Assembly (NCBI GenBank): GCA_900617105.1
Contig: UYFQ01000507.1
Location: 1 to 43,162 of the forward strand
Source: Hydrurus foetidus
Taxonomy: Eukaryota
Reading direction: 5' to 3'
DNA length: 43,162 bases
Part shown: piece after piece, positions 1 to 35,789 of the stretch
Layout of the letters: each line of letters begins with the position of its first letter
How positions within the stretch are numbered: position 1 is the first letter of the stretch
Notes under the pieces: generated by a model
What the model saw: only the letters and a program-made list of their open reading frames with translations
Told to the model about the DNA's origin: nothing
Databases searched by the model: none
Position numbers and translations under genes: made by a program

Positions 1-559
1 TATAGTAAGCGTTGAATTTATTCATTTTGATAATCTTAAAAAGAATATTGTTCTAACGGTGTTATTAACGGATAAGAATCTCACAGGAATTGATACTATA
101 GATGCGAATATTGTGAAGTACAACCCATCGGTGTGATTTGGTTTAAGTTATACCGCTTTGCCGTTGATTTGGTGAGATACAAAAGCATACATCAACACTA
201 AAAAAACGCCGATAAGAGAGAGCAATTCTTACTCTCGTACACTAACCGCGGCATTTTTCGAAATCAGAGATTTATTGTTTGTATGATAACGAATAATGAT
301 CGAGCGAACGTGAAATCCCAACACGACCGTACCGAATCTCAACGAAGATTTCCGGAATAATTGGCCGTGAATTTCATCGACCCGTTGAATATCCCATCAT
401 CCCATCCACATCCTTCGTCCCCCTACAGTACACCTACAGCCTACAGTATTACGACCGCAGAATAAAATATCCTCTCCAAGGGAAGTTTTGTGAACTTAAG
501 CAAGGGGGGGAAACCCATTTGAGCTCGAAAGGGAAGCTTTTAATTCCGGAGGAGTTTCG

Positions 560-3703: not shown

Positions 3704-3918
3704 TGTGGCCTTGCCAGGATCTGGGCACTGGGAGCGGGACGGCTGGGAGCGGGAGCAAGGGAAAGGAAGCTGGGAGCTATTGCTATGGAAACAATGTGGT
3801 TAGCTTACAGATAAACACAGCAGGTATCATGGCAATGAATCGGATGGATCGGATCGTCCTCGATCCGGTCCGAACGTACGCCTGTACCCGTACAGCCCGT
3901 ACGGGTGTGCGGGTCACA
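3704..3918 (-). repeat. 3' LTR of Gypsy A (215 bp)
   Basis: Near-identical to 18260-18476 (two substitutions and a 2-bp indel seen); short purine tract AGAGAGGG precedes it on the minus strand. Confidence 0.95.
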
Positions 3919-4087
3919 GTGCCCTCTCTAAAGGGGTGTACTAAATGACAAAATTCATCATCAAAATACTAACTATGAGTAAGTAACTAACTTATTGAAT
4001 AACTATTTCAGACTAAGAACTGAAAGTTCCACTGAATAAACTTTAAAACTGAGGAATTTGGAGGTCCTTTGGAGTCTTTATTTTTGT

Positions 4088-7000
4088 TTACCGTTCGGTA
4101 CGGAACGGATGGTAACTTGAGTATTGATCATGGTTCCCGTAATGTGTGATTTCCTTGTGATTGTGGTTGAGCCATTTCACATGAAATGTGAGTGATTTGT
4201 ATTTTATGTTTCCTTTCATTTCTAGGATTTCCTCTATGAAGAATTCTAGATAATCTCTACGAGCAATGTCAGTTGGATCGACATGCGTAGGATCAAAGTG
4301 AAACGGTTTTAGTTGGGTCATGTGGTACAACTTTTCTTTGTGTGTTACCAGATCGAGTAATGTATACTCTGCGAAGTTATGGCTGACAACTCGCATTGGG
4401 CCGCGCCACAGTGTGTGCATGCGCGTTTCTGGTGATGTTCTTTGTTGGACAAGTACAAATGTGTCGACCCCGAACTGTGTGACGTTGGGAAGTTGTTGTG
4501 CATTGTGCAAGTCGTCGGATTCTTTGAGTAGACGTGCGGTGATTTCGATGAGTTCATCTTGCAACGTTAACATTTTATCAGTTGACCGTGTGAGTGAGTC
4601 GAAATCTAAATCAATTTCATCTCTCGGAAGGAGGATGTTTGCGTCGAGGTCGATCGCGTTGCCATAGATGAGTTGTGCTGGAGACACTTTCATCCGGTCA
4701 TTTACGGTTGAATTTAGTATTCTTTTGTACGCATTCCCAGCCATATGTTATTTGTTTTTTTTAAATTACGCAGTGTGCGTTGTACACCACCATATCCGAC
4801 TATCGTGTTGTGGCACGTTGCAATTAGGTTATATTGCTCTGTCGTTATTGGTTTGTGTGTCAGAATTGCTGCTATTATCCCTGTTTTAGGTAGCATTCTG
4901 TTTAAACATAGGCGAGACATTGCGTCAGCAATTTCATTTTGTTTTCCCGGGATGTACTCTATCGTATATTCTAGTTCCTGCAGGGCCATACGCCATCTGC
5001 CGACCATCTCATATTTATCCTTTTCTAGGAACGTAAGATTTTTGTGGTCTGTTAGGATTGTGAATTTACGGTCTCGCAGCAGTGCGTCGAGATAAGTACA
5101 GCAATAATATAGCGCGAAGGCTTCTTTTTGTATTACTGACCATTTCAGTTGAGTCTTGGTAAGAGACTTGCTTACGAGAGCGACGAGTTGTTTTTCTCCG
5201 TCGACTTCTTGATACAAATAGCCGCCGATCCGTAATCTGACGCATCGGTCATGAGGGTAATGGGCGCTATCGTGTATGAAATATAATAAAGGACTCTTTG
5301 CAATTAGATCTTTTATCTTTTGAAAAGAATTTGCGGCGTCATCTGTCCAGATTAGCATTGATTGCTTTTTCGCGGCGTGATCTATAATTTTGTGCAGTGG
5401 TGCTACCACGTTGGAGTGATTTGGTACATGATCCCGAAAATAATTGGTGAGTCCGAGGAACGATCTAAGTTCAGTCGTCTTTCTTGGCATAGGAAAGTCG
5501 GTCACACCTCTTATTTTTTTGGAACTCATAGTTATACCTTCTTTAGATATTTGTCTACCGACATATTCAACTATTCGCACATTTAGCTTTAGCTTTGCGG
5601 CTTTTAGTGAAATGTTTTTGTTTTCTAGGCGTTGAAAAAGGATTTCTAATCGCTCGCAGAATTGATCAAATCCATTACCATAAACGATGATGTCGTCGAG
5701 GTATACTTCACAGATTTGGTATATTAGTCCTAAAAGGACTATTGAGGCCATCATTTCTTGGAAATATGAGGGGGCTCTTTTGGGTCCGAAAGGTAGTCGG
5801 GTAAAGTGGTAGATGCCCATAAATGTTATGAAAGCTGTATACACACGTGTACTTAGTGTTAACGGTGCTTGGTGATATCCTGCTGTGAGGTCTATTACAC
5901 CGAATGTGTCTGCTTTTTGTGAACCTAATCTTGCTAACATTTGTTTAATATTAGGGATTGGCCAGCTTGCTGATTCCGTTGCGTCGTTGAGGTGACGATA
6001 GTCGATACAGAATCGGTATGAACCGTCTGGCTTTGCCGCGAGTGTTACTTGCGAATAGTATGATGCCTCTGATTTGACTATTATACCCTGTTCAAGCATA
6101 GTTTCAACTTGTTTTCGGATTTCGACTTGTTTTCGTGTAGACGTTGGTCGTGGTGCTACGCGGTTTTTGAAAACTTTCCACTCTGGATCCCGTACGGGTA
6201 GTCCAAAGGGGGGAATTCGCGCGGGCTCTGGTCCGAGTTTGTTGTTAAATAGCTTTATGTGTTTGACACAAATTGCTTTAATTTTTGCTTGTTGTTCAGG
6301 GGTACCATCGATTTGTATTAGATCGATGAGGTACATTTTGTCCTCTGTTGGATTGTCTTGGAAAGGAGCGAAGGTATCCTTCGACTTGTAGTCAATCTCT
6401 TCGGGTCCGAAGGGTTGAACCTCTGGGAGTTCTTCACGCTCCCGGAGTAGAGCAGCAACTAAACCACGTGTTTGGGCTGGTGCCTTGGATGAGGGAGTAG
6501 GAGTAGCTAATTCCGGACTCCTGTCGGTTGTTACACCTAAATCATTTTGTCGGGGAGGTGACAACAAAACTGCTGCCTCGACCGTAGAGTGCAAAATGAA
6601 CTCATCAGAATCTAGCCTAGCCGCTGCCGCAGCTAAGCTAGTGGGACACCCACATGAAGGAGTGCATGTCTTGCTTGTACAAGCACCTCGAGCCACCAGG
6701 TCGTCTTGCCATCGACTGTCTGTGTCTGAGGGTTTTATCCCCTCTCGGCTAGTTATAACCGGAGGTATGGTTGGATCTGTAATGCTCGTAACTGTGTCCG
6801 ACTCTGCTTCTAGCATGAGTGGAACGTCCACGTGGTTTAATACCATGTTTGTGGATTGATTCAGTTTTTGTAATGAGTGAATTTTTTCATTTTCGATATT
6901 TTCCGGAGATTGGAAAAATTCCGGAATAATTTAACAAATTTAATTTTCTTATTGTCTCCAATCCTAAGATTAAGTCGACTTTGGAATCTTCTGCAATTCG

Positions 7001-7471
7001 CACCGGAAGAGAAAAAGTGTATTTTAAACCGTTTTTGTTAAATGATACAACAATATCAAGCACAGCAGTGGATTCAATACATTGATTGTTTAGACCCAAA
7101 CACATCCATATGGGAGAGTCGGTGGTGCGAAGTTGGGGTTCACCACGTAGGCCCCGAAGGACTCTACGATTGATTACGTCCCCAACTTGACATCCGGTGT
7201 CGATTTGGGCTGGGGCGGCCATGCCGTTATTTTGGTCCATAGCTGGAGGAAGATTTGGGTGGGGACCGGTCTCGATCGCGGCGATCTTTGTCTTTGTCCT
7301 TTTCCGCTTGGCGCGAGTCGTCTTTGCGGTTGGAGTCGCGGTCGCGGCTGTCAACTCGGTCGCCAAAGCGGTAGCCGGGGATTGGGTCTGAGGAAGATAT
7401 ATTGTTACTTGTAAGTAATCATCAATCTCGTTAGGTATGATTGTTGATAAAAGCATTTGCATGTTTGGCAA
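4088..7471 (-). pseudogene. Gypsy A pol: protease, RT, RNase H, integrase lacking its core, chromodomain
   Basis: AQIDTG (PR); FCIDYR, DLTAGYHQ, PFG, VYLDD (RT); TDH/ADAMSR (RH); LWRGPMRV; EFFIEEIL...FHVKW (chromodomain). Split over ORFs 6887-7471, 4714-6846 and 4088-4744. Confidence 0.9.
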
Positions 7472-7658
7472 AATACGATTTTCTGAGATATTTTCCGCAT
7501 ACGGAATTTTGGACTCACGTTTTCCTTTGTACCCGCGGTCTTTGATGTCGCGAGTATCGCGATTTTCGTTGCGATCGGTGTCGCGATTGTCTTTGCGGTC
7601 GTTGTCGCGGTTGGACCGGTCGTTGTTGCGATTGTTGTTGTTGTTGTTGGCTTTGGCC

Positions 7659-7987
7659 TATGCTGTGTCACGGTTTCAGCAACTGGCTGAAGACGAAGCT
7701 TTGAGTTTCAAGTTGGGCAAATGGGCGCAACAGGTTGGCTTGTCAGTCAAATGGGACTGATCAAGGAGATTGGCTGACTCAATTGAGTCAAAGTTGGTTT
7801 GGGTGGTTTAATAACGGTAGTTAATTAAGGTGTGAAAGGAGTGCGAGATTAGAGCTATACGAGCACACTGCAACTTGAAGTTTCCGAACAATCAGAAATT
7901 GAAAACTGATTCGAAAACTAGTGGTTACAAGCAAAGTTCAATGTGACTGTACGTACGTGTGAGTAATATATAGTGGAGACTATAACA
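7659..7987 (-). repeat. 3' LTR of Gypsy B
   Basis: Direct repeat of 15286-15614; minus-strand ends TGTTA...CATA. Confidence 0.95.
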
Positions 7988-7999
7988 CCACCCCATTCC
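7988..7999 (-). promoter_or_regulatory. Polypurine tract of Gypsy B
   Basis: GGAATGGGGTGG immediately upstream of the 3' LTR on the minus strand. Confidence 0.7.
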
Positions 8000-8358
8000 G
8001 GATGAAAAGTGTGATTAGGGTTGGAAATGAATAAATACAAAGTCATTACTACATCTCTGTGAGTTCGTTTATGAAATTGTATCGCTATAATAGCTTAATT
8101 AAAAATAAGTGGTTGGGTGGAAGTTGACGGGTTCGAACCCCTGCAAAATGCAGCTGAAGTGAAAATTAGACCAACAGGTGTGGCGTAAAAATTTTTCATG
8201 GCACTTTTCAGGGCACGCCAGGAAATGTGACGTGGCTGCAAAATGGAAATTCCAAGAAACGAAAAATTTCGCGACGCGAAATACTCTACTACTCAGCACT
8301 CAGCACATATTGAAGTTACAACTTCACCAATACACTAGGAGGGTTACAATATAGCAAA

Positions 8359-8997
8359 ATGTCAGGTGAATTTCTTCCATCGAAGAATTTATGCATGGCG
8401 GCGGCAATGGTTCTACCGCTGTCAGCGGAGCAACAGCAGTGGATGAGGTTGGGCGATGACGCAGGCAACACATTCAAAAAATCATTGGGATTGAATATAG
8501 ACGACAAGCTTCATTACGGAGCATCTGTCGAAGACGCATCGACGTATCTGAAGTATGTGTGTGCTAGGAACAAAGAGCTTGGGATTAAGTTAAAGTACGA
8601 GTTTCGGAGAGTCACAGGAAGGCATGGAAAGAGCCGTCGGTGGAATGCACATTCGATAGAGAAGACAGTTGTAAACAAGAAGGGAATTTATGTGGTATAT
8701 GGCAAAGCAAAATGGTTGAACAAGTTGCACACGGCACTGTTGAAGAGGATTAAAAAAGCAAATTGCGTGGGTGAAGAATTGGAGATTTACAGCATGGTGG
8801 CCAAGGGATTAAGCAGGATGGATCACGCCATTAGCATTCGTAGTGATGAAAACGGCGTCAGAATTTTTGATAATGCATGCACTAATGGTAGCATTAAATA
8901 TAATGTTCTGAATTTGGCAAGCAAAATGATTGATTTGACGAATTGTTATTATTTCGATTTGTATGAGAAGGGTAACAAGTCAAAGATAATTAAGTAG
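8359..8997 (+). CDS. Antisense accessory ORF in Gypsy B, 212 aa, putative papain-fold cysteine peptidase
   Basis: Uninterrupted ATG-TAG ORF between pol and the 3' LTR; motifs KNLCMAAAM, DHAISIR and VRIFDN in papain-like Cys-His-Asp order; the product is inferred. Confidence 0.6.
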   Translation: MSGEFLPSKNLCMAAAMVLPLSAEQQQWMRLGDDAGNTFKKSLGLNIDDKLHYGASVEDASTYLKYVCARNKELGIKLKYEFRRVTGRHGKSRRWNAHSIEKTVVNKKGIYVVYGKAKWLNKLHTALLKRIKKANCVGEELEIYSMVAKGLSRMDHAISIRSDENGVRIFDNACTNGSIKYNVLNLASKMIDLTNCYYFDLYEKGNKSKIIK

Positions 8998-9609
8998 AGT
9001 TTATTTTAGGGGGCAAGCCCACATTTTGAATGCCGTCCTCACATTATAGCTTCGGCTATGCTTCAATGAGTTGGAAAAAAAATGTGGTCAAGCCTCAGAC
9101 GCTTGGTATTAGCTTATGGATGTCATCGGCGGATTACTTTAAGGTAAGAATTTGATAGATTGTTGTAAAATAAATTTAATTATTTATTTCACGTATGTAA
9201 CATATTTAAATTTGTTATTTTTAATTTTTAAAATGACTCATATAATTATTTTAAATTTGTCAAATGACCTATTTAATTGTTATAAATGTGCAGAATAAAT
9301 TATTTAATCATTTATAATGCGTATTTATGTCGTGTATAACTATCGTACAGTATGGAATTATTATTTCATGTGTGTAAATATATTTTGACATGCGTTATTA
9401 ATAACTTACACATAGAATACATGAAGTAAAATTGTTGTTTGACATGTTATGTGAATTGTATGATGTGTGTAGTTGTCAATTTATTAGTGTGATTGTGGAT
9501 AATTGAATTTCGATGTGTATGAATATTTATCAAATGGAAAACATGCAGAATAGTAATTTATTTATGTGTCATATGCATATTGAATACATATGAGTGTTGT
9601 CGTGTAGGA

Positions 9610-12600
9610 CTATTGTGTAGAATTAACATTGTTTGACATGTCATTTGCATGTAGATGTTTATTTGTATTGTCGTGGGACAAGATTAGACATATTGTTTGC
9701 ATATAAATAGTCATGTACAACTGACACTTTTTAACTTCTGCCCATGGCTCCCATGTGTCATGTTCTGATGAGTAGTTGTGCCACCTGATTAGGAATTCTA
9801 GACTTGTGACTCGTTTGGAATCTCCTCTGTGACTTATGACTGAATCAATAATGTACTCATCTCGATCGAGCAGTGCTGCTGAAGTCGCAGCATCGGAGGA
9901 ACCTACGAATGGGGTGACGCGGCTGGAGTGAAGCTTCGAGACAATATTCGTGATGACGTGTCTGCAGGTGATATCATTCTTAGTTTGCTTTATTACTTCG
10001 TAGGGCCCAAGAAGTTTCGGAGAAAGTTTAGTGGATCGAAACGATTGTGGGGTCTCAAGTGGATTCCACAGAAGGTAGTCTCCGGGTTGATATTTGTTGT
10101 GTGTCGGTGTTTTAGCTAGCCGTTGAAGGCGGAGAGTTTGTTGGTACGATGATGTTATGGATCGAACAACAGAGAGATTGCGGTCAAGAGCAATCACTAG
10201 ATCACCGTAGGAGTGACCTGGTGATAGAGGAGGAGGTAAGTGAAAGCGAGCGTAGTCACGAGTTCCGTATTTTAGTTCAGCTGGTGTTACACCGCCTATC
10301 TCTGCGTTAGGCATCGTCATCATTGCGTGATTGATGAGAGGGAGCACGGTATCTGAGGCCCATTTGTTGGTGAATCGCTCGTCATGGACGAGCCTGCGCA
10401 GATGCCCCAGAAAGAGGGCATTAACGTGCTCAGTGCCGTTAGACTCATGGCGTCCAACAAGAGATATGCGGTGAGGTATTCCAAGCCATCGATTAAGATG
10501 ATCGAGGATGTCGGCAGTGAAAGCACTACCGGGGTCGGAGTAAATGGAGTCGTATGTGCCAAAGGTACAGTAGTGCTTAAACAAGACAGTAGCGGCTGTG
10601 TAGGCACTGTAGTCTTTGACAGGATACGCTTGTGGGAATTTGGTATCAAGTTCAACAACGAGAAGTAGACCAATGTAGCCGTCTTCGTCAGCTGGAGTAA
10701 CAGAGACGTGATCGAACCCAATTGAACGAGGATGGTGGAATAATGTTTCCCGAATTTCGTTGTACGGGATGGTCTTCAAAGGAAGACGGTCCTTCTGACA
10801 GATGGGGCACTCATTCACAAGATCCTCGACGACACGTACAGAGATGCCGTGACCAGGGAATCGTCGACAGAGGGCGAGATAGGTACGTTTAGCACCGTGA
10901 TGTAGAGATCGGCCACCGTGTACCGCGTCGAACATGTCTTTAGTCGTAAGGGATTGTAACATGGGTGATAGAGTGGATGGTGGTTGAGTGAGAGGGTGCA
11001 TACGCGACAGCCAGTCTGCCACAGTGTTGTCCTTTCCAGGAATATGCTTAACAGTGAAGACATAACTTTGTAGGAGAACACGCCAGCGGACTACTATGGG
11101 AACTTGACTGGTCTCAATCCAGACTAAGTTTCTATGGTCAGTCTCCAGTAGGAATGACTTACCACGGAGGTAGTATCCAAACTGAGTTACAGCGTAGTAT
11201 AAGGCATACGCTTCTTTCTTGAATGTGTCCCAATTGACAGCGGCACCAGAGTACTTATGCGAGGCGAAGGCGATTGGCTGATGGATGATGGTGTCTTGGG
11301 AATCGGTGAACTCTTGAAACAGGACGGCTCCTACAGCATGGTCGGAGGAGTCGGATCGTATGATCCAAGGTAGTGTATAATCAGGGAAGTGCAATGTGAC
11401 TGAGTCAGTTATAGCGACCTTAAAGAGTTCGAAGAGATGTTCGTAGTCTTTAATCCATGTTGACTGATCCCAGTTAAAACCAGTGGCTGTGCACTCGTAC
11501 AAGGCAGACGCCCATGAGGCGAAGTTGGGAATATGTGTATGGAAGAAGTTGGCTGCCCCTAAGAAGCTTTGCATTTGCTTCTGTGATGTAGGGAAGATCA
11601 TTGATGAGATAGCGCTTTTCCTAGCATCAGAGAGTTGCCAAGATCCTGGATGCACTTCATAACCGAAGAATGTAACAATGTCGGTGCCTATCCAAGACTT
11701 TTTAATCTTTAAAACAAGTCCATTGCTTTGACAGCGAAGTAGTACTTTCCTCAGTTTGTTAAGAGCATCTTGATAGCCTGAGGCCAGTACTAAGAAGTTG
11801 TCGAAGATAACAATGATCCAGTCGTCAAAATCAGCAAAGATTCTACGAACTATAGACTGAAGTATACCAGATGCAGGTCCGACACCCTCAGGCAGAAACT
11901 TCGGTCGAAAGAGTCCCCAGGGTGTGGACACTGAGAGTAGGTTAGAACTGAAATCATCGATAGGTATTTGGTGGAAAGAGTTTGTCATATCAAGATCGAC
12001 AAACACTTTCCAGCCAGCAGCTTTCGCAAGAGATTGTTGGACATGGGGTATGGGCTCTTGCGGGATACTGATGTATGGATTGATGGGGCGATAGTCACCA
12101 CAGAGCCGAATGAATGGAGAGGTTGCTTTCGGTGCAATGACAAGTGGACAGGCTATTGGAGATGTCGATACTTCGTAGAAGTATGTGCGCATTCTATCAA
12201 ACTCTGCTTTGGCGTCTTGATACAAAGCTTGCCGGACAGGGCGGGCTCGAGCTCTTAGAACGTCAGGTATGCCAGGCTTTATGTCGAGATGACATGGAGC
12301 CATGTTTATTCCCTTCCATGTGCTCGGGACAAATACGTCGTGTGCAAGTTCAGATTGGAGTAGTTCCATAATGGCTGGACATGCAGCTCGTATTTGAGGA
12401 GTGACGTGGGTGGCAAGATCGGAAGTGTAGATTGCTCGAGCTTCCTTCAGTGTAGTGGAAAGGTAGGCGAGGATATCATCAGGAAAGCTGGTTGGGTCAG
12501 GAGTGTTTAGCTCTTCAGGTGCGAGGGAATCAATTGGCTTAGACCAGGGTTGCATCATATCACCAGGATCCGGACTACATAGGAGAGCGCTTAAGGCATC

Positions 12601-13389
12601 ATATCGAGTCTCTACACGATTGTCGGCGAAGACATGGCCAAGATGAGGATGTGTCAGTATATCTGTAGTTGTACCATCCTGAAGAGCAAGTAGCCCTATT
12701 CGGGTGCTGGCACTGTCGCATATCTTGTTTTTACGTTGATGGTAGGCGGCATTGTGGTGTTGGAGAGAACGAGTTGCTCGTTCAATATCCTTAAGATTGC
12801 ACTGACTGTGAAGTACTTGAATTTCGACTGTAAGATCTCTCAAATGTGTTTCAAGATCATTTGTGATCGAGAGTTCGCGAGATTGAGTCACGGAGTCTGC
12901 AAACAGATCATAGAAGGGGCCGATAAGGTCAACTAAGCCGATGATAATGTCATGACTAAGAACGTCGAGAACGCTATACCATAGACAGTGTTGGTGGTTG
13001 TTACTTGCGGAGTCAAGTATACCGACAGTAAGAGGAACCTCGAGCTCAATCGATAGGGAGCGTGCATCACCTAGGCGGACGATGCGATCAATGGAGCGAC
13101 TGAGGTCAGTGATAGTTGAAGGTAGGCGGTTATAAACGTCACGGGAGATAAAGTTACTTCCTTGAGCTCCTGTATCAAGTAGACCGCGATCGAATAGGAT
13201 TGGATCGGTATCAGTTATGATGATACCAGAGCGAATAAATGGTTGGCAAAGTGTCTGCGAGGGTGTTGAAGTAGCAGATGCTAGTTGGTTGAGTAAAGCT
13301 TCTGTAATAACGTTGTCGGGGTCAAAGACATTTGCGTGTTGGAGATCTGGGGGAGAGGCGAGGTGATCTTCCGTGTGCATTTCAGCCAT
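9610..13389 (-). CDS. Gypsy B Pol (PR-RT-RH-IN-chromodomain), 1259 aa
   Basis: LLDTGA; LCGDYR, DLDMTNSFHQ, VIFDN; SDSS/EAYA/TDH/ADWLSR; HGGRSLHHG..CPIC, FDH/SDPG; LLGPY; EYIIDSV..FLIRW..DTWEP. Confidence 0.95.
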   Translation of the reverse strand: MAEMHTEDHLASPPDLQHANVFDPDNVITEALLNQLASATSTPSQTLCQPFIRSGIIITDTDPILFDRGLLDTGAQGSNFISRDVYNRLPSTITDLSRSIDRIVRLGDARSLSIELEVPLTVGILDSASNNHQHCLWYSVLDVLSHDIIIGLVDLIGPFYDLFADSVTQSRELSITNDLETHLRDLTVEIQVLHSQCNLKDIERATRSLQHHNAAYHQRKNKICDSASTRIGLLALQDGTTTDILTHPHLGHVFADNRVETRYDALSALLCSPDPGDMMQPWSKPIDSLAPEELNTPDPTSFPDDILAYLSTTLKEARAIYTSDLATHVTPQIRAACPAIMELLQSELAHDVFVPSTWKGINMAPCHLDIKPGIPDVLRARARPVRQALYQDAKAEFDRMRTYFYEVSTSPIACPLVIAPKATSPFIRLCGDYRPINPYISIPQEPIPHVQQSLAKAAGWKVFVDLDMTNSFHQIPIDDFSSNLLSVSTPWGLFRPKFLPEGVGPASGILQSIVRRIFADFDDWIIVIFDNFLVLASGYQDALNKLRKVLLRCQSNGLVLKIKKSWIGTDIVTFFGYEVHPGSWQLSDARKSAISSMIFPTSQKQMQSFLGAANFFHTHIPNFASWASALYECTATGFNWDQSTWIKDYEHLFELFKVAITDSVTLHFPDYTLPWIIRSDSSDHAVGAVLFQEFTDSQDTIIHQPIAFASHKYSGAAVNWDTFKKEAYALYYAVTQFGYYLRGKSFLLETDHRNLVWIETSQVPIVVRWRVLLQSYVFTVKHIPGKDNTVADWLSRMHPLTQPPSTLSPMLQSLTTKDMFDAVHGGRSLHHGAKRTYLALCRRFPGHGISVRVVEDLVNECPICQKDRLPLKTIPYNEIRETLFHHPRSIGFDHVSVTPADEDGYIGLLLVVELDTKFPQAYPVKDYSAYTAATVLFKHYCTFGTYDSIYSDPGSAFTADILDHLNRWLGIPHRISLVGRHESNGTEHVNALFLGHLRRLVHDERFTNKWASDTVLPLINHAMMTMPNAEIGGVTPAELKYGTRDYARFHLPPPLSPGHSYGDLVIALDRNLSVVRSITSSYQQTLRLQRLAKTPTHNKYQPGDYLLWNPLETPQSFRSTKLSPKLLGPYEVIKQTKNDITCRHVITNIVSKLHSSRVTPFVGSSDAATSAALLDRDEYIIDSVISHRGDSKRVTSLEFLIRWHNYSSEHDTWEPWAEVKKCQLYMTIYMQTICLILSHDNTNKHLHANDMSNNVNSTQ

Positions 13390-13407
13390 GGAAGGCCTCG
13401 CGAACCC

Positions 13408-15132
13408 CTATTTCTGATATGGGCGCATCGGTGTTGACAATGGAGGAGGTCGTGCTGCTCCTGGCACTTGTGGGGGTCCATAGTGTTTGTATCCATGTGA
13501 GTTGCTCGTTTTAACTCCACTTATCGGTTCCTGTTTGGGTGGAGACCATGGTTCTAGCTGTCCGTGCAGTAGCAATTCACGCTTGGTGAGAAGCGAGAAA
13601 GACTGAATACAGCGTTCCTGGCCGGCGGTTGAGTGATCGAAGGTGCAGCCGGAATGTTGGCGAGCGCATTTGCCGTAGACGAATGCTTCACTGCAGTATC
13701 CACGGAAGGTTGCGGAAACAGCTGATCGGGACCGATGCTGATCGACATTGATCGCAAGAAGAGATTCATCCTCAGGGTCTAGTGTGTCGACACGATCCTG
13801 AGGTCTGTCTTCATGTACTTCATGAATCAGGTCATCTTCATCTTCGAGGTCTTCTTCGTTGCATGCATTCTCGGATGCATTGAACAGTGGGTTAGCAGAC
13901 GTTGCTAGCGACGAGAAGTTTGATTGTGGACGCTGATCGTATTTGCGAGGAGTGACAAATGGCTGACGACCTGTATTGGACACCTGATGTCGGGTATGAG
14001 ATTCGCCTTGAGTGTATCTCAGATCTTCGTAGCGAATAGGAGTGAGCCTGGCGTCCAAGTCCTGTCGTGCTTCGCTTTGAGCACGACCTTCCATTAGTCG
14101 AGCCCTAACAAACTTGACTGCTTGTTCTACAGACTTCTGCTTAATGAGCTCGTCCTTGCTGAGCCATTGTAAGATGGAGTCTTTCTGAGCACCAAGGGAG
14201 ATGAGCCACAAAGCGATTTGGCCAGGGCTGTCTCTTGTGCCGTAACCAGGTACTGGCATCTTGGATTTGTTGGCGCTGTGATTTGAGGTTTCTTCAGACA
14301 TCAGATCATGCAGATGGAGCAAGTCAGTGAGCGACTTCATTAGAGGGGCATAGAAGGTGCTAGAGAAGTTGTCGGTGCTGATTGATGGTGTCTGTGGTAT
14401 TCCTTTGCCAAGAAACAATATTAGTTCCTTGGAGTACAATTCTTTTGTTCGAGGTCGTGCAGCTTCCACGAGGATAGCTTGAACCTCGGAGTTGGTTAAA
14501 GATAACCAATCTTCTACCATGACCTCGTTTGGTTCGGCGCCAGTGATAACTGACTCTCGATACTGGTGTGAGTTCCATGATGCCAATACGTGAGGGCGCA
14601 GGTTGTATGAAACCATGTGGGCCATTTTGATTTCACGTCCTGGATATTTGGAGGAAAGCAATTGAAGTTGGCGAGAAAGGTACTGGAGGCCTTCTAGAGA
14701 ACTGATCTTGAGTTCCTTGTCGTAAACGATGTCAGCTTGGAGGACTTGGATGTTTGGTTTGGTCGGCATGTCTGGTCTATCAGTGTTGTCTGGAAGTGAT
14801 TCCAGATTGTTCGGTTGGTAGTGCGGCATGCCGAAGAACATCGATGATCTTCTCCCGCGATTGCGATCAGGAAGTGGAGTATCGATGAACTCATCACGTA
14901 GTGGAGATTTCAAGTTCGATTTCTTGATTTCCAGGATTGCGTCTTTGAGTTCGCGGATATCGGTGCGATGGCGAAATTGGATTTCGCTACTTGTAGCTAG
15001 GAACTGATGGAACATTTCCTTGAGCTCCAAGATAGGATCATCCGAAGGCTCATCCTCTGGATCTTTCTTTGGGATTCCTTGTCCTTCGGACATTGTTGAA
15101 GGATAGCAGCTGTAGATGTGGTCGATTTGCAA
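13408..15132 (-). CDS. Gypsy B Gag-like protein (probable start MSEGQG)
   Basis: 574-codon ORF between the 5' LTR and pol, in the same frame as pol; C-terminal C-x8-C-x6-C-x3-H. Confidence 0.85.
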   Translation of the reverse strand: MQIDHIYSCYPSTMSEGQGIPKKDPEDEPSDDPILELKEMFHQFLATSSEIQFRHRTDIRELKDAILEIKKSNLKSPLRDEFIDTPLPDRNRGRRSSMFFGMPHYQPNNLESLPDNTDRPDMPTKPNIQVLQADIVYDKELKISSLEGLQYLSRQLQLLSSKYPGREIKMAHMVSYNLRPHVLASWNSHQYRESVITGAEPNEVMVEDWLSLTNSEVQAILVEAARPRTKELYSKELILFLGKGIPQTPSISTDNFSSTFYAPLMKSLTDLLHLHDLMSEETSNHSANKSKMPVPGYGTRDSPGQIALWLISLGAQKDSILQWLSKDELIKQKSVEQAVKFVRARLMEGRAQSEARQDLDARLTPIRYEDLRYTQGESHTRHQVSNTGRQPFVTPRKYDQRPQSNFSSLATSANPLFNASENACNEEDLEDEDDLIHEVHEDRPQDRVDTLDPEDESLLAINVDQHRSRSAVSATFRGYCSEAFVYGKCARQHSGCTFDHSTAGQERCIQSFSLLTKRELLLHGQLEPWSPPKQEPISGVKTSNSHGYKHYGPPQVPGAARPPPLSTPMRPYQK

Positions 15133-15285
15133 AGACTTTTCAATTCAGCTCTCCTAGGGAATTCAATTTACCTCAGAGATTCTAAATCTCGCGGAGCCAG
15201 GGCGATCACTGCTTGCTGGCGGAAAGGAAAGAATCAACTGAGACTTAGACGTTGTCTCGTCTCGTGTAAACTAGAAATATATATT

Positions 15286-15614
15286 TATGCTGTGTCACGG
15301 TTTCAGCAACTGGCTGAAGACGAAGCTTTGAATTTCAAGTTGGGCAAATGGGCGCAACAGGTTGGCTTGTCAGTCAAATGGGACTGATCAAGGAGGTTGG
15401 CTGACTCAATTGAGTCAAAGTTGGTTTGGGTGGTTTAATAACGGTAGTTAATTAAGGTGTGAAAGGAGTGCGAGATTAGAGCTATACGAGCACACTGCAA
15501 CTTGAAGTTTCCGAACAATCAGAAATTGAAAACTGATTCGAAAACTAGTGGTTACAAGCAAAGTTCAATGTGACTGTACGTACGTGTGAGTAATATATAG
15601 TGGAGACTATAACA
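15286..15614 (-). repeat. 5' LTR of Gypsy B
   Basis: Direct repeat of 7659-7987. Confidence 0.95.
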
Positions 15615-15631
15615 GGCCTTGTTGTTCTTGC

Positions 15632-15727
<96 letters not shown>

Positions 15728-17706
15728 GGACTTGCGAGGGTCGTCTTTTGCAGCGGGACCCATGTCATTTTCGACGTCGTCGGTTGGGTAGACGTATGTT
15801 GCCGCGCCAGGATTGTTGGTTGTCCTGGTCATTTCGCCATTGAGTAGGACGTTTGGGACGAAATGGTCGTGGCCAATTCTCCTGAACTCTGTTGCCAACG
15901 TGGATTGACTCCACGTGGTATACGAGTTGTTGCAATGAGGATTCATGAAATTGCGACAATCGTAGCGATTGTGTCCTTGGCGACCGCAGGTGTGGCAATT
16001 ATCGATTGTTTTGCTCAGACCTGGGTAGGCGTCGGATTCGCGTTTGGGTATCGTGCGGTAGGAGGCGGAGAGCTGCGTTGTGTTGCTGGACGACAATGAG
16101 TCGGGGTGATTTTGGTCTCGAAGTCGTAAGCGAAGACCACCCATGTTGGACGCGTTGATAACTGTTTGCCGAGCTTCACTGAGGCAGAGATTCATTCGGC
16201 ACAACATGTTTGGGATGGAATCCTTTTGTTGTTTCTTGTTTTGTCCTTTGTAATGTTCATGAAGTTTTCAGTGAACTTATTATCAAGAGGGAGCTTTTTG
16301 TAGATGATCTTACAGATCTCATGTTGGCGGTCTGCAGGTATATTGTCGTAGCTGCCGTAGTATCCGAAGAGGATGTCTCGGAGTCGTGCAATTGCCGCCA
16401 ACTCTACGTTTGGGTTTTGCCATTTGATCTTCATTTGCCAGTTTTTCAGGGCAAGGTCCAAGTCATAGGTAGACTCTGTGGCGCGATCACTGAAGAATAG
16501 TTTCTTGAGATCGGTGGCCATGTCGCGAATGGACAGGAGTTTGTCGTCGATGATGGGCCAGGTTTGACACATTTTGATTGTGTATCCGAGAGTCTTTCGA
16601 TTTTGAAGGAGACTGTCTCGGATCACATGGACAGCTTCGTCTTCGATGAGATCCTTCCAAGGTGCATTAAACTGAGGGCGGTGCGCCTGTGTATAGAACT
16701 TTCGGGCTGTGCCGTCCATGTCCTTCAGTAATGTCTCACGTGTTACATAGAACACTTCCTTCATGTTGATGAGGGAGGTTGTGAGTGCTTGGGGTGTTCG
16801 TTGTTGTTCGAAGACTGTGTCAGCCTCTTCGGTTTTGCGCTTGCGGTTTGAAGTGGCAGCCGCTTTCGTGGAAGCTGTCGCTGACTTCTTTGCAGCTGCT
16901 ACCGTTGCTTTCGACGTTTTGGATCTGGTGGCACGCGTGGGTTTGTCTTCAGATTGGACGGCAGAGAGTTGTTTTGCCTCCCTTGTTTTGGCAAGGGGTT
17001 TGATTGGCATAGCCTTTTTCTTTTTCGGTTTTGGTGACGGTGGGGTTGACGCTTCCGACTCACTTTGATCTTCCTCGTCCGATTTGGACTTGGTATCGTC
17101 GGGGTTGTTGTCTTCCTCTTCGTCCTCGTCGTTGGTTTGTTCGTCTTCCGCCTCTTCCGAGGCGTTGTCAGACACCGAGACGTTATCATCGTCGGAGAGA
17201 ATTTCCTTCGGAGATATTTTGGTACCGATTTTGTCGTCGCCCTCTTCCGTTTGAGAAGGATTGATATCCTCTTCTTCTTCGGTTTGGGGTCGGATTGGAG
17301 AGCCATCCTCATCTGACTGAGGGTTTAGACTGTGTAAGTCATTTGTCTCTTGCATCCAGGCTGACAAGTCTTTCAGTTCTTGATCTTCGAGATCAGATCT
17401 GTTGTCAGCCTGTTCCTGCAGCACTTCAAGTCGCACGCGATTGCGTTCACGTTCTTGTTGTAGCTCCAGGAAGCGTGCTTCGTTTGCCGCCAATTCGTCG
17501 GATATGCGCGTATGGGTGCTCGAGGCTTTGATAGCCGATTTGCCCAGCGTCTTCATGGAGTTGGCTATATTGTCTTCTCGAGCGAGACGCTCGAGTTTAG
17601 CCTTCTCTTTATCCGATAGGAAGAGGATATTTTGGGGTTTGGAGCGTTTGGAAGACGAGCTAGCTTCGCTAGAGCTCTCTTTCTTGGTTTTTTGGGCCTT
17701 AACCAT
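15615..17706 (-). pseudogene. Gypsy A Gag (frameshift near 16200; continues below 7658)
   Basis: ORFs 16192-17706 and 15545-16207; CCHC knuckle CHTCGRQGHNRYDC; long charged low-complexity N-terminus. Confidence 0.8.
15619..15729. repeat. (TTG)n microsatellite in Gypsy A gag (poly-Asn/Thr)
   Basis: About 110 bp of TTG repeats; similar repeats continue at 7622-7649 on the other side of Gypsy B. Confidence 0.9.
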
Positions 17707-18259
17707 CTTGAAAACTTGGCGTGGGAATTCTCACTGGAACTCTGCGTCTTGGACAGCGACGGAACGCGGACGCGGTGATTCAGGGAAAAGAGGAGTAGGT
17801 TGTTCGAGGGTGAGGACTGGTAGGTAGGATGGGTAAGTGTGGTAGTAGGAGTCAGGGGATTGGAATGGTTTGGTGCGATTTCGGGAGGAAATCGCAACAA
17901 AATTTGGACGTGGGCGGCGGCTTCGTAAGGAACGAAGCTGGGCGTGGGCGCGTTGGATTTCGTTCGTGAACGAGTTTGGGAGGTGTTACTTGCTTGCAAG
18001 TTCCTTTCCTTCGTAAGCCTTCGCGTAGAAGAGCTGCATATTTTGGGAATAAATCGCCAATATTTGAGGTCGCGAACGACTACGATTCAGAGGCTGTCGC
18101 GTTGACGAGACCTTTGTAGTATCGTTTGGGGTGGTTTTCACTCTTGGAGAGTTACTCAACTTGTTCCTCAGACTGTTTTACGGTCGTTGCGGGATTTTTT
18201 GTTGGACGTTTGGTCAACTTGGATCTTAGAGATCGCTAGCTGGTTCCAAATACCGGTAT

Positions 18260-18476
18260 TGTGGCCTTGCCAGGATCTGGGCACTGGGAGCGGGTCAGCT
18301 GGGAGCGGGAGCAAGGGAAAGGAAGCTGGGAGAGCTATTGCTATGGAAACAATGTGGTTAGCTTACAGATAAACACAGCAGGTATCATGGCAATGAATCG
18401 GATGGATCGGATCGTCCTCGATCCGGTCCGAACGTACGCCTGTACCCGTACAGCCCGTACGGGTGTGCGGGTCACA
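18260..18476 (-). repeat. 5' LTR of Gypsy A (217 bp)
   Basis: Direct repeat of 3704-3918. Confidence 0.95.
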
Positions 18477-25615: not shown

Positions 25616-28018
25616 ATGAGTCCCTCTCTTATGCGAATTGTGGTTGGAGCAGTTTGCTGCAGTAAAGCGCTATCATTTTCATTCGGTCGATTATCTACTG
25701 GCAGAAGCAGAATTGTCATGCAAGCCGAAGCTGAAAAAGTCGTATTGAACAAATACTCCCGCATAATCACTGAGCCTCCAAGTCAAGGAGCATCTCAGGC
25801 AATGCTGTATGCTACGGGACTGACCCCAGAGACCATCGCTCTTCCACAGGTCGGAATTTGCTCAGTTTGGTTCGAGGGGAACCCTTGCAATATGCATCTA
25901 ATGGATCTCTCCGGCGACGTTAAACAAGGTATTTGTGAATACACAGCTAAATCAGACGTAGAGGTTATCTTTGCGTGATTTCCGAATTTGTTGCTGCAGG
26001 TGTGACAGAAGCTGGTCTCACTGGATTCAGATTCAATACTATTGGTGTTAGTGATGGAATTTCAATGGGCACAGATGGCATGAGTTATTCACTTCAATCA
26101 AGAGATGTGATCGCCGATAGTATCGAGACCATCATGGGTGGACAGGTGAGGCCTACACTGCTTCAACATCTCCTCTGACATGGGCTCACTCGAACACATC
26201 CTTGAATTCCTAGTGGTACGACGCACTAGTCGCCATTCCTGGCTGCGACAAAAATATGCCTGGCTGTCTCATCGCCATGGGCCGCCTTAACAGACCCGCC
26301 ATCATGGTTTACGGAGGAACGATCAGAGCTGGCTGCACAGAGAAATTCCCTCAGGTATGGAGGCCACTGCGAGACGAACTGCATGCAGCGTTTACTGACG
26401 ACATGATGCTACCCTCAGTACTTTTGTTTCCGCAACATCATCAGCGCAACTTCTCTGATCTGCTAAAATCTACTGAACTTAAATTTTTCTTCGATCTCGC
26501 CAACAATCTCACTTAATTGATCGCAGTTGGACATCGTATCAGCTTTCCAGTCATACGGCGAGAGCATGTATGAGAAGATCACTGAGGAGGAGAGAAAGGA
26601 AATTGTAGAGAACTCCTGCCCCGGCCCAGGAGCTTGTGGAGGCATGTACACTGCCAACACAATGGCCACTGCCATCGAAGCCATGGGCATGGCTCTGCCC
26701 TTCTCCTCCTCCACCCCTGCTGACGATCCACTGAAGACCGCTGAGTGCAAGCTAGCGGGTGAAGCTATTCTCACTCTCCTCAAGATGGACCTCAAGCCAA
26801 GAGACATTATGACCAAGAAGGCCTTCGAGAACGCCATTACGATCGTCATGGTGCTCGGAGGCAGCACCAACGCAGTGCTCCACCTCATCGCCATGGCGAG
26901 AGCCGTGGATGTCGACATCACACTGGACGATTTCCAAAGAATCTCGGACAAGACCCCTTTCTTGGCAGACTTGAAACCATCTGGCAAGTACGTCATGGAG
27001 GACCTGCAAAAGTACGGAGGCACGCCTGCTGTGATGCGCTACCTGCTCGACAACGGCATGATCCACGGAGACTGCCTCACCGTAACTGGCAAGACTGTCG
27101 CTCAGAACTTGGCCACCATCAAGCCAGTCCCAGAAGGAAACCCAATCATCATGCCACTAGAGAGCCCCATCAAGGAGACAGGACATCTACAGGTAACCTT
27201 GGGCAACTAATGTCAGGCCGTCTCTGCGCTAATACACTGCAATCTGTTGGTTCTCAGCTGAATGACTTCCATATATTCAGATATTGTACGGCAACTTGGC
27301 TCCTGAGGGCAGTGTAGCTAAGATCACCGGCAAGGAAGGACTCCGCTTCGAAGGCACCGCCAAGGTGTACGACTCCGAGGAGCTCATGATGGAGGGACTC
27401 AACAGAAAGGAAATCACAAAAGGTACAGTGTCGAGACGAATATCCATCTATTCCGCCCTTCAGTGACATTGTAAGATTTCGACTTACTTCATCGATTGCT
27501 CCGTTTACTCTGTATGGTAGGCATGGTTGTGGTGATTAGGTACGAGGGCCCCAAGGGCGGGCCCGGCATGCCCGAGATGCTCACCCCCACCAGCGCCATC
27601 ATGGGTGCCGGACTGGGCAATGACGTAGCGATGGTCACTGACGGTCGCTTCTCAGGGGGCAGTCACGGATTCATCATCGGACACGTCACTCCTGAGGCAC
27701 AGGTGTGTAAGGACAGGACTCGAAAATGCTCTCTGAGCGACATCAATTGACGAAATCCCTCTCTTATCTCACTATGTGAACTTGTGATGTCTGTATGAAC
27801 TGCATCAGGTCGGTGGAGCAATCGCATTGCTAGAAGACGGAGACAGAATAGTAATTGACGCGGACAAGAAGGTGATGACAGTGGACCTCACTGATGAGCA
27901 GTTAGCAGCGCGTAGGGCAGCATGGGTGCCACCCCCCCTCAAGGCCACTAGAGGCACTCTCTTCAAGTACATCAAAAACGTTTCCTCCGCCTCTCTAGGA
28001 TGTGTCACCGACGAGTAA
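25616..28018 (+). CDS. ilvD: Dihydroxy-acid dehydratase, probably plastid-targeted; exons 25616-25928, 26000-26145, 26214-26354, 26527-27192, 27281-27422, 27521-27702, 27809-28018
   Basis: [85 protein letters not shown]; six GT-AG introns that preserve frame. Confidence 0.97.
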
Positions 28019-28672
28019 AGCGGCACATACTGCCTTTCTTCTTAGCGCCCCCCTCCCTACCTTTTCCTACCATACCCCGTCCTATCCTGCTAGTTTATCT
28101 AAACATGCAGTACGTGGGTACCTTTTGCGGACATCGCGCCACAAAAGGAAGCCACGTGCTCGTCAAGATAATAAAATTTTATTAGTAACCCACTCCTCCT
28201 ACGTTATAGTCTGTTTTGCGTAAGCAAACAGTCCAATTCTCATAATGTCACTTTTTCCCAATTATTTCCGTCCGACTGGAGAAGACTTTCTGGAGGACTG
28301 TGCATGATATTTCTGAGCTTCTTCGAGCAGCCGCAAAATGCCGGTACAGAATATTCGCAGGAGCGCGTCCTCTCCAACTCTCATAACTGAGCCACTGGAC
28401 GCACAGTACTTTTCAATGCGATCAGCTCAATGCGTCTCACGGCTGGTTCCCACCACGCCATGTGTCTCTGCCGCCACTCCACTCTATTCCGCTGCGCTTC
28501 TAGCTGTCCTCGTCCTCGACAGCCTTGCGGTCCCTCCGATCCGATCCGACTAGATCCAAGCCGATCCTTCAGAGACATACAGTAACGCCTGCGTCGCATT
28601 GATGTCATGTCAGCTGCACTATATGGCCCCTCTCATAGATCAAGCGTGTTCAACACTACAGGCGCCAGGCGG

Positions 28673-30128: not shown

Positions 30129-30469
30129 TGTTGGAGATATCGTAGTTTATGACACGGACACAATCAGTGTACTTATGCATTCGTACGGTCGTACGGATTA
30201 ATTTGTGTGTGTGTGTGTGTGTGTGTGTGCGTACATGCGTGACGACGATGAATGGACCCGTGCATCGTCTCTGTACTTCAAGCGTAGTGTAGAATGTCTT
30301 TTGTTGTTGCGTTGAAAGGGACTCGGGGACTTCAGCAGGGATGAAGCACAGTCAATTAACAAGTGTTTACTGCCATACAAGAGCTTATTTCACGAGTCCT
30401 GACCGAGTGACCTTCAACCACAGTACAGCGAGAGGCGTACGTGTGGGCCGAACCGAAGATCCGTCAACA
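30129..30469 (+). repeat. Copia 5' LTR (341 bp, contains (TG)n)
   Basis: Matches the 3' LTR except at the TG tract. Confidence 0.95.
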
Positions 30470-30472
30470 TAA

Positions 30473-35410: not shown

Positions 35411-35749
35411 TGTTGGAGATATCGTAGTTTATGACACGGACACAATCAGTGTACTTATGCATTCGTACGGTCGTACGGATTAATTTGTGTGTGTGTGTGT
35501 GTGTGTGTACGTACATGCGTGACGACGATGAATGGACCCGTGCATCGTCTCTGTACTTCAAGCGTAGTGTAGAATGTCTTTTGTTGTTGCGTTGAAAGGG
35601 ACTCGGGGACTTCAGCAGGGATGAAGCACAGTCAATTAACAAGTGTTTACTGCCATACAAGAGCTTATTTCACGAGTCCTGACCGAGTGACCTTCAACCA
35701 CAGTACAGCGAGAGGCGTACGTGTGGGCCGAACCGAAGATCCGTCAACA
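35411..35749 (+). repeat. Copia 3' LTR
   Basis: Direct repeat of 30129-30469. Confidence 0.95.
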
Positions 35750-35789
35750 TGCGCTTCCAAATTTCCACCGATTTAGGCCAGACGCACGC

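Follow-up and report, generated by a model that had tools for sequence, protein, structure and literature searches.

Additional open reading frames (ORFs) lying antisense between pol and the 3' long terminal repeat (LTR) are known from plant retrotransposons and from Botrytis (gene23 of Grande, RIRE2, TRP28 of Retand, PvRetro13 and Boty), with functions left unexplained in the available parts of the source papers (PMC7264820, PMC11963269). Here we describe such a gene in a 43,162-nucleotide stretch of Hydrurus foetidus DNA (assembly GCA_900617105.1, contig UYFQ01000507.1, positions 1 to 43,162 of the forward strand; hereafter, the window). The ORF occupies positions 8359-8997 on the plus strand, opposite to gag and pol of a Ty3/Gypsy element, and encodes 212 residues with an isoelectric point (pI) of 9.6, predicted to form a papain-fold Cys-His-Asp enzyme. 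Being antisense, placed between pol and the 3' LTR and conserved across copies of the family, it is an antisense additional ORF of the aORF-3R type. It shares position, orientation, family-wide presence and probably an own promoter with the plant and Botrytis ORFs, among which gene23 is nuclear. Those ORFs have no assigned enzyme fold; this one is predicted to encode a Cys-His-Asp protease, its family is unrelated to theirs, and the element that carries it, from a probable alga, bears a chromodomain.

Thiol proteases have also been reported from DNA transposons, namely OTU and Ulp1 domains in Ginger1, Mutator and Helitron elements (PMC2836005) and VTD deubiquitinases in Helitrons (PMC9741609). 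As far as the accessible text of these papers goes, they too are mobile elements with a thiol protease proposed to aid transposition or blunt host control, whereas their domains lie inside the transposase or RepHel protein and belong to known deubiquitinase or SUMO-protease families, with a D-x-H site in VTD. The ORF described here is instead a gene of its own, antisense in an LTR retrotransposon; its predicted catalytic residues follow the canonical Cys-His-Asp order, and Pfam holds no match to it. Other LTR retrotransposons likewise carry accessory enzymes, part of them directed at the epigenome of the host, although the enzymes differ: in the sections available, ORF3 of bdelloid rotifer elements is a GDSL esterase or DEDDy exonuclease (PMC5408684), and DAM-LTR and EpiLTR elements encode methyltransferases (bioRxiv 10.64898/2026.05.21.726589), the words 'protease' and 'peptidase' being absent from the EpiLTR main text. 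We found no published case of an LTR retrotransposon with a papain-fold gene standing by itself, although Repbase, subscription papers and bioRxiv supplements may contain one.

It is nearly certain that the ORF is a maintained gene, intact, travelling with pol, under constraint and keeping three residues across a wide family, and highly probable, judging from the predicted structure, that its product adopts a papain fold with an active Cys12-His156-Asp171 triad. Our preferred reading of its role, to which we assign a probability of roughly 0.4, is that of a nuclear counter-defence endopeptidase which uses this triad to cut one particular nuclear protein of the host that takes part in silencing the element.

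As stated in a preliminary description of this DNA, the ORF is intact, runs opposite to pol between pol and the 3' LTR and is set off from pol by a very AT-rich spacer. It sits between the polypurine tract and a spacer (8998-9609) that separates the convergent ends of the two genes, and GC content is 27.6% in the 9001-9500 bin against 38-40% in the adjoining bins. The gene is neither disrupted nor absent in sister contigs. Contig X2 record 8 (1652 nt) runs from ahead of the ORF to within pol (8060-9712) and has 27 differences. Of the 24 that are listed, two fall in the 639-nt ORF, both synonymous, and 22 in the 911 nt flanking it (Fisher p 0.0006; placing all three unlisted differences in the ORF would raise this to 0.017); the AT-rich spacer holds 15 of the 24. 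In the diverged contig X2 record 11 (1964 nt), the end of pol (486 nt with 69 differences) is joined both to position 8983 in the ORF and to the upstream block 8223-8246, while diverged contigs of X7 and X18 have the ATG at the same place, with a loose end at 8383. These joins and the shared start indicate that sister families keep the ORF in the same slot and orientation. Several sister families of about 80-87% identity, each with the ORF, co-occur in the same runs (window 8359-10121), and a host may carry several protease variants simultaneously. Several close homologues lie on contigs of 7285-7348 or 7628 nt, near the size of the element's internal region (7299 nt) or of that region plus one LTR (7627 nt), a circumstantial link of the homologues to such elements.

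That close sister families keep the gene along with gag-pol would also suit an extra protease that processes the element's Gag/Pol, or a particle maturation factor. We give this very little chance: pol already has an aspartic-protease motif (DTGA, read from the sequence), the gene would form a separate antisense transcript unit, and it is absent from two related elements, L001 and L002, in the DNA examined. The product also lacks the env-like transmembrane segment whose absence had been noted before, the ORF being antisense with a highest 19-residue Kyte-Doolittle mean of 1.24. The element as a whole has no signal peptide, transmembrane segment or antidote gene, which makes a selfish toxin or addiction factor harming cells or gametes without the element extremely improbable.

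The family is broad. A HMMER search over 1.84 billion cluster representatives (cut-off E<=1e-3) recovered 119 of them, down to about 27% identity; word-based searches returned 27 and 36 proteins, and 26 homologues outside the ORF's own cluster share 49-77% identity. Counting at each site the representatives that cover it, the predicted nucleophile Cys12, in the motif N10-L-C12 (8386-8394, plus strand) at the start of a helix, is present in 22/23, and Asn10, a candidate oxyanion-hole residue, in 23/23; in the close set, Asn10 is replaced in 10/83 and gapped in 2/83. His156, in a (D/N)-H-A motif (8824-8826, plus), is the best conserved column (76/79). The predicted third triad residue, in Asp171-Asn172 (8869-8874, plus), is Asp in 59 and Asn in 9 of 73 representatives (68/73 together), and Asn172 is kept in 64/72. 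Cys68, Cys136 and Cys174 decay across the family; Cys196 is kept in 56/64.

No Pfam, NCBIfam or PHROG family matched the ORF protein at a meaningful score, and no PDB sequence matched it. Seven listed members bear the JGI label 'predicted RNA-binding protein YlxR', which was dropped as it had no Pfam backing. No longer or fused form was found, itself weak evidence. Relatives were absent from the searched viral contigs, metagenome collection and prokaryote genome contigs, and from 401 genomes of one bacterial phylum in a search without a positive control; the best match in a phage search had an E value of only 0.8. The ORF is predicted to define a papain-fold family of more than 100 clusters without an existing name.

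Predicted secondary structure places Cys12 before helix 13-18, His156 before strand 158-163 and Asp171 at the end of strand 166-171. A Cys opening a helix, followed by His and Asp/Asn on adjacent strands, was seen in both structure models, together with the conservation of these residues; the second model (predicted local distance difference test, pLDDT, 47) was left out of the fold searches. The top Foldseek match was AvrPphB (E 4.8e-3, probability 0.87). By their titles, 45 of 50 VIA rows were papain-fold proteases, with C39 among the top rows, and Atlas rows comprised C39 (0.92-0.94, with 128-144 shared features, below the 170 typical of same-family matches), C58 (0.91), IpaJ and ACTMAP. 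The preliminary description had pointed to an N-x-C before a helix, to HAISI and IFDN near the C-terminus, and to an order and a His-to-Asp spacing like those of papain-fold Cys-His-Asp enzymes such as C58/YopT and C39-like peptidases; the predicted helix and strands, the residue counts and the three fold comparisons support it.

At sequence level, HH-align to C39 scored a non-significant 12-14, shuffled controls reaching 14-15 (three of 20 extracted domains were wrong-frame and were retained in two of three target alignments). The C58 profile TIGR01586 gave a best E of 0.095, in one of 33 members and amid noise, and there was no Pfam match to PF03412 or C39 domains. The ORF protein resembles YopT/AvrPphB (C58) and C39 enzymes in predicted fold, Cys-His-Asp order, a small residue after the His and a catalytic unit of about 200 residues, and differs from them in having no sequence-level match and a 40-residue basic insertion before the His.

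The reaction can be narrowed by the surroundings of the catalytic residues. In the accessible text of two reports, the catalytic His of ordinary deubiquitinases is followed by an aromatic gatekeeper, with VTD and ZUFSP as exceptions, and VTD, UfSP2 and Atg4 have a D-x-H active site (PMC9741609, bioRxiv 10.1101/2024.07.24.604956). In the present family, the residue after His156 is small (Ala in 67, Gly in 5, Thr in 3, Val in 2 and Cys in 1 of 79), so that the gatekeeper of conventional deubiquitinases (USP, UCH, OTU, Josephin) is absent in 78/79, and in place of a D-x-H of the VTD/UfSP/Atg4 type there is (D/N)-H-A, in which residue 154 varies and which a conserved Asp/Asn follows further on. 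Ulp1/SENP enzymes of clan CE have the order His-Asp-Gln-Cys, the Cys opening a helix. In the low-confidence models this arrangement is absent, since Cys196, the sole conserved Cys after the His, opens a predicted strand (195-203) and is not preceded by a conserved Gln; no Ulp1/SENP enzyme occurs among the 50 VIA rows, an absence that amounts to no exclusion. Josephin-2 (Cys24, His125, Asp140) has the same His-Asp spacing of 15, and the VIA range of 9..203 against 21..177 is compatible with Cys12 on Cys24. Against Josephin deubiquitinases as described in the available parts of the literature (PMC7337049, bioRxiv 10.1101/2024.07.24.604956), the ORF protein lacks both the aromatic gatekeeper and a Pfam Josephin match.

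A non-canonical deubiquitinase or ubiquitin-like isopeptidase, ZUFSP-like in combining a canonical triad with no gatekeeper, might shield Gag/Pol from degradation or strip ubiquitin or SUMO from chromatin. It is unlikely, as at least 78 of 79 representatives have no aromatic residue after His156, a D-x-H motif is missing and the rows for C39 and Josephin score level (Z within 1). A papain-fold enzyme of another chemistry (Gln/Asn deamidase, acyltransferase or lyase) acting on a host protein is distinctly improbable: its scores are weak and tied with those of proteases, and no family feature indicates one such reaction. The earlier proposal of an accessory enzyme such as a deubiquitinase, deSUMOylase or deamidase therefore holds in part: an accessory gene, conserved and linked to pol, is supported, whereas a conventional deubiquitinase is weakened by the Ala/Gly-type residue after His156 and a conventional deSUMOylase by the missing Ulp1-type arrangement. 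Taken together, the small residue, the lack of D-x-H and the lack of an Ulp1 arrangement favour, at the level of sequence, a non-deubiquitinase enzyme of the YopT/C39 kind.

Members of the family are basic, with pI >9 in 30/33 of those aligned. A basic helical insertion (residues ~116-154; 8704-8820, plus) separating the first core strand from the strand of the His, with helix 122-132 at pLDDT <50 and with K116, K118, K129, A148 and G150 partly conserved, is a candidate substrate- or chromatin-binding arm. Moreover, of the 68 representatives with an aligned N-terminal part, 40 begin after Cys12 and five have a different N-terminus. High pI and missing Cys motifs would fit a basic protein, catalytically dead or not an enzyme at all, that binds DNA, RNA or chromatin and is comparable to the antisense TRP28 proteins of Retand, and the products of known antisense ORFs are either nuclear or predicted DNA binders, according to the portions available (PMC7264820, PMC11963269). 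The late starts are, however, likely due to truncated gene calls, because P0243, from the same group as the truncated P0219, does show the Cys motif, and His156 in 76/79 with only Asp or Asn at position 171 in 68/73 is the pattern of a working triad. We regard such a binder as highly improbable.

Under the preferred reading, a nuclear endopeptidase, the antisense gene would be transcribed from a promoter of its own close to the 3' LTR, and the Lys/Arg-rich product would enter the nucleus. There it may act as a sequence-specific endopeptidase, by analogy with YopT/AvrPphB-type and C39-type enzymes, on a putative chromatin or small-RNA silencing factor, and copies steered into chromatin by the chromodomain would thereby remain expressed. 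This sequence of events is possible, at somewhat less than even odds. Chromatin is suggested as the context of the target by the basic character of the protein, the chromodomain of the integrase and the SET-like domains in L001 and L002.

The upstream region (8060-8358, plus) is the candidate promoter. The palindromic motif GGGTTCGAACCC (8129-8140), kept in diverged sister contigs, presumably resembles a Pol III B box; neither a tRNA nor an Rfam match explains it, and it may serve as a TFIIIC site or as a barrier in chromatin. A second motif, GTGACGTGGC (8227-8236), lies within the block 8223-8246 conserved in a sister family. The perfect palindrome TTTCGCGACGCGAAA (8267-8281), 78 nt before the ATG, we take to resemble paired E2F-type sites; a chance test allowing two mismatches was not significant (21/100 shuffles).

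A related element may fill the same slot differently. A pol scan yielded 16 loci, none with the protease gene and two with SET-like domains. In L002, the SET-like gene lies in a 433-codon antisense frame (5001-6299, minus) flanked by pol and by a polypurine tract whose sequence, ATGGGGTGG, the present element shares; the SET match (E 2.7e-4, 21.8 bits) is just under the cut-off of 22.4. In L001, a SET domain (E 4.8e-5) is at the start of the pol frame, ahead of the protease (1001-1600, plus). We found no report of SET-like genes in such Ty3/Gypsy elements in the literature. It is conceivable, though doubtful, that the antisense slot behind pol in this algal/protist lineage is an exchangeable counter-defence cassette, holding a new-family, effector-style protease that cleaves a host silencing protein here and a SET methyltransferase in relatives.

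The carrier is a chromodomain-bearing Ty3/Gypsy LTR retrotransposon, in which LTRs, target duplication, polypurine tract, the order protease-reverse transcriptase-RNase H-integrase and the chromodomain are all present. On the minus strand it comprises a 5' LTR (15287-15614), gag (15093-13408; 561 residues), pol (13389-9610; 1259 residues, with reverse transcriptase, RNase H, integrase and, after the integrase, a chromodomain matching Chromo at E 2.3e-10), the polypurine tract GGAATGGGGTGG (7988-7999) and the 3' LTR that it precedes (7660-7987). It is a recent insertion, as had been supposed: the LTRs, of 328 nt each, differ at two positions, and the target duplication GGCCT stands on both sides (7655-7659 and 15615-15619). 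Its gag and pol share one frame, split by a single TAG that a predicted hairpin follows (13353-13410, minus); the boundary stop is TGA in L001 (998-1000), L002 (776-778) and L003, diverged sister contigs retain the block 13353-13401, and stop-codon readthrough is likely. The LTR termini are TG...AT, not TG...CA, and after the 5' LTR a palindromic AAATATATATTT (15275-15287) takes the place of a tRNA primer-binding site; priming may be tRNA-independent. The element was present in 20 runs from 10 studies, mostly freshwater or sediment metagenomes, with no RNA run among those listed.

It is nested in an older Gypsy element with LTR-like repeats at 3704-3918 and 18260-18476 (98.2% identical), the insertion site being the Asn-rich end of the older gag (window 3704-18476). 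Nearby are a Copia element with 342-nt LTRs (30129-30470 and 35411-35750; 99.1% identical), fragments that we take, from their motifs, to be Harbinger-like transposase, and an AAAATC-type microsatellite array of ~3.4 kb at the contig end (39750-43162). The window is eukaryotic DNA whose genes have introns; a dihydroxy-acid dehydratase gene (25616-28020) begins with what is presumably a plastid-targeting leader, which makes a photosynthetic stramenopile the probable host.

Antisense accessory ORFs of LTR retrotransposons are widespread and functionally unexplained (PMC7264820). With a predicted catalytic triad, the role of this one is directly testable with one point mutant and standard probes. 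Were the cassette model true, the slot would hold the counterpart, in a retrotransposon, of the anti-immunity proteases of viruses and bacteria. If the enzyme does cleave a silencing factor, it would represent a retrotransposon protease against host defence and would offer a pointer to how algae silence such elements.
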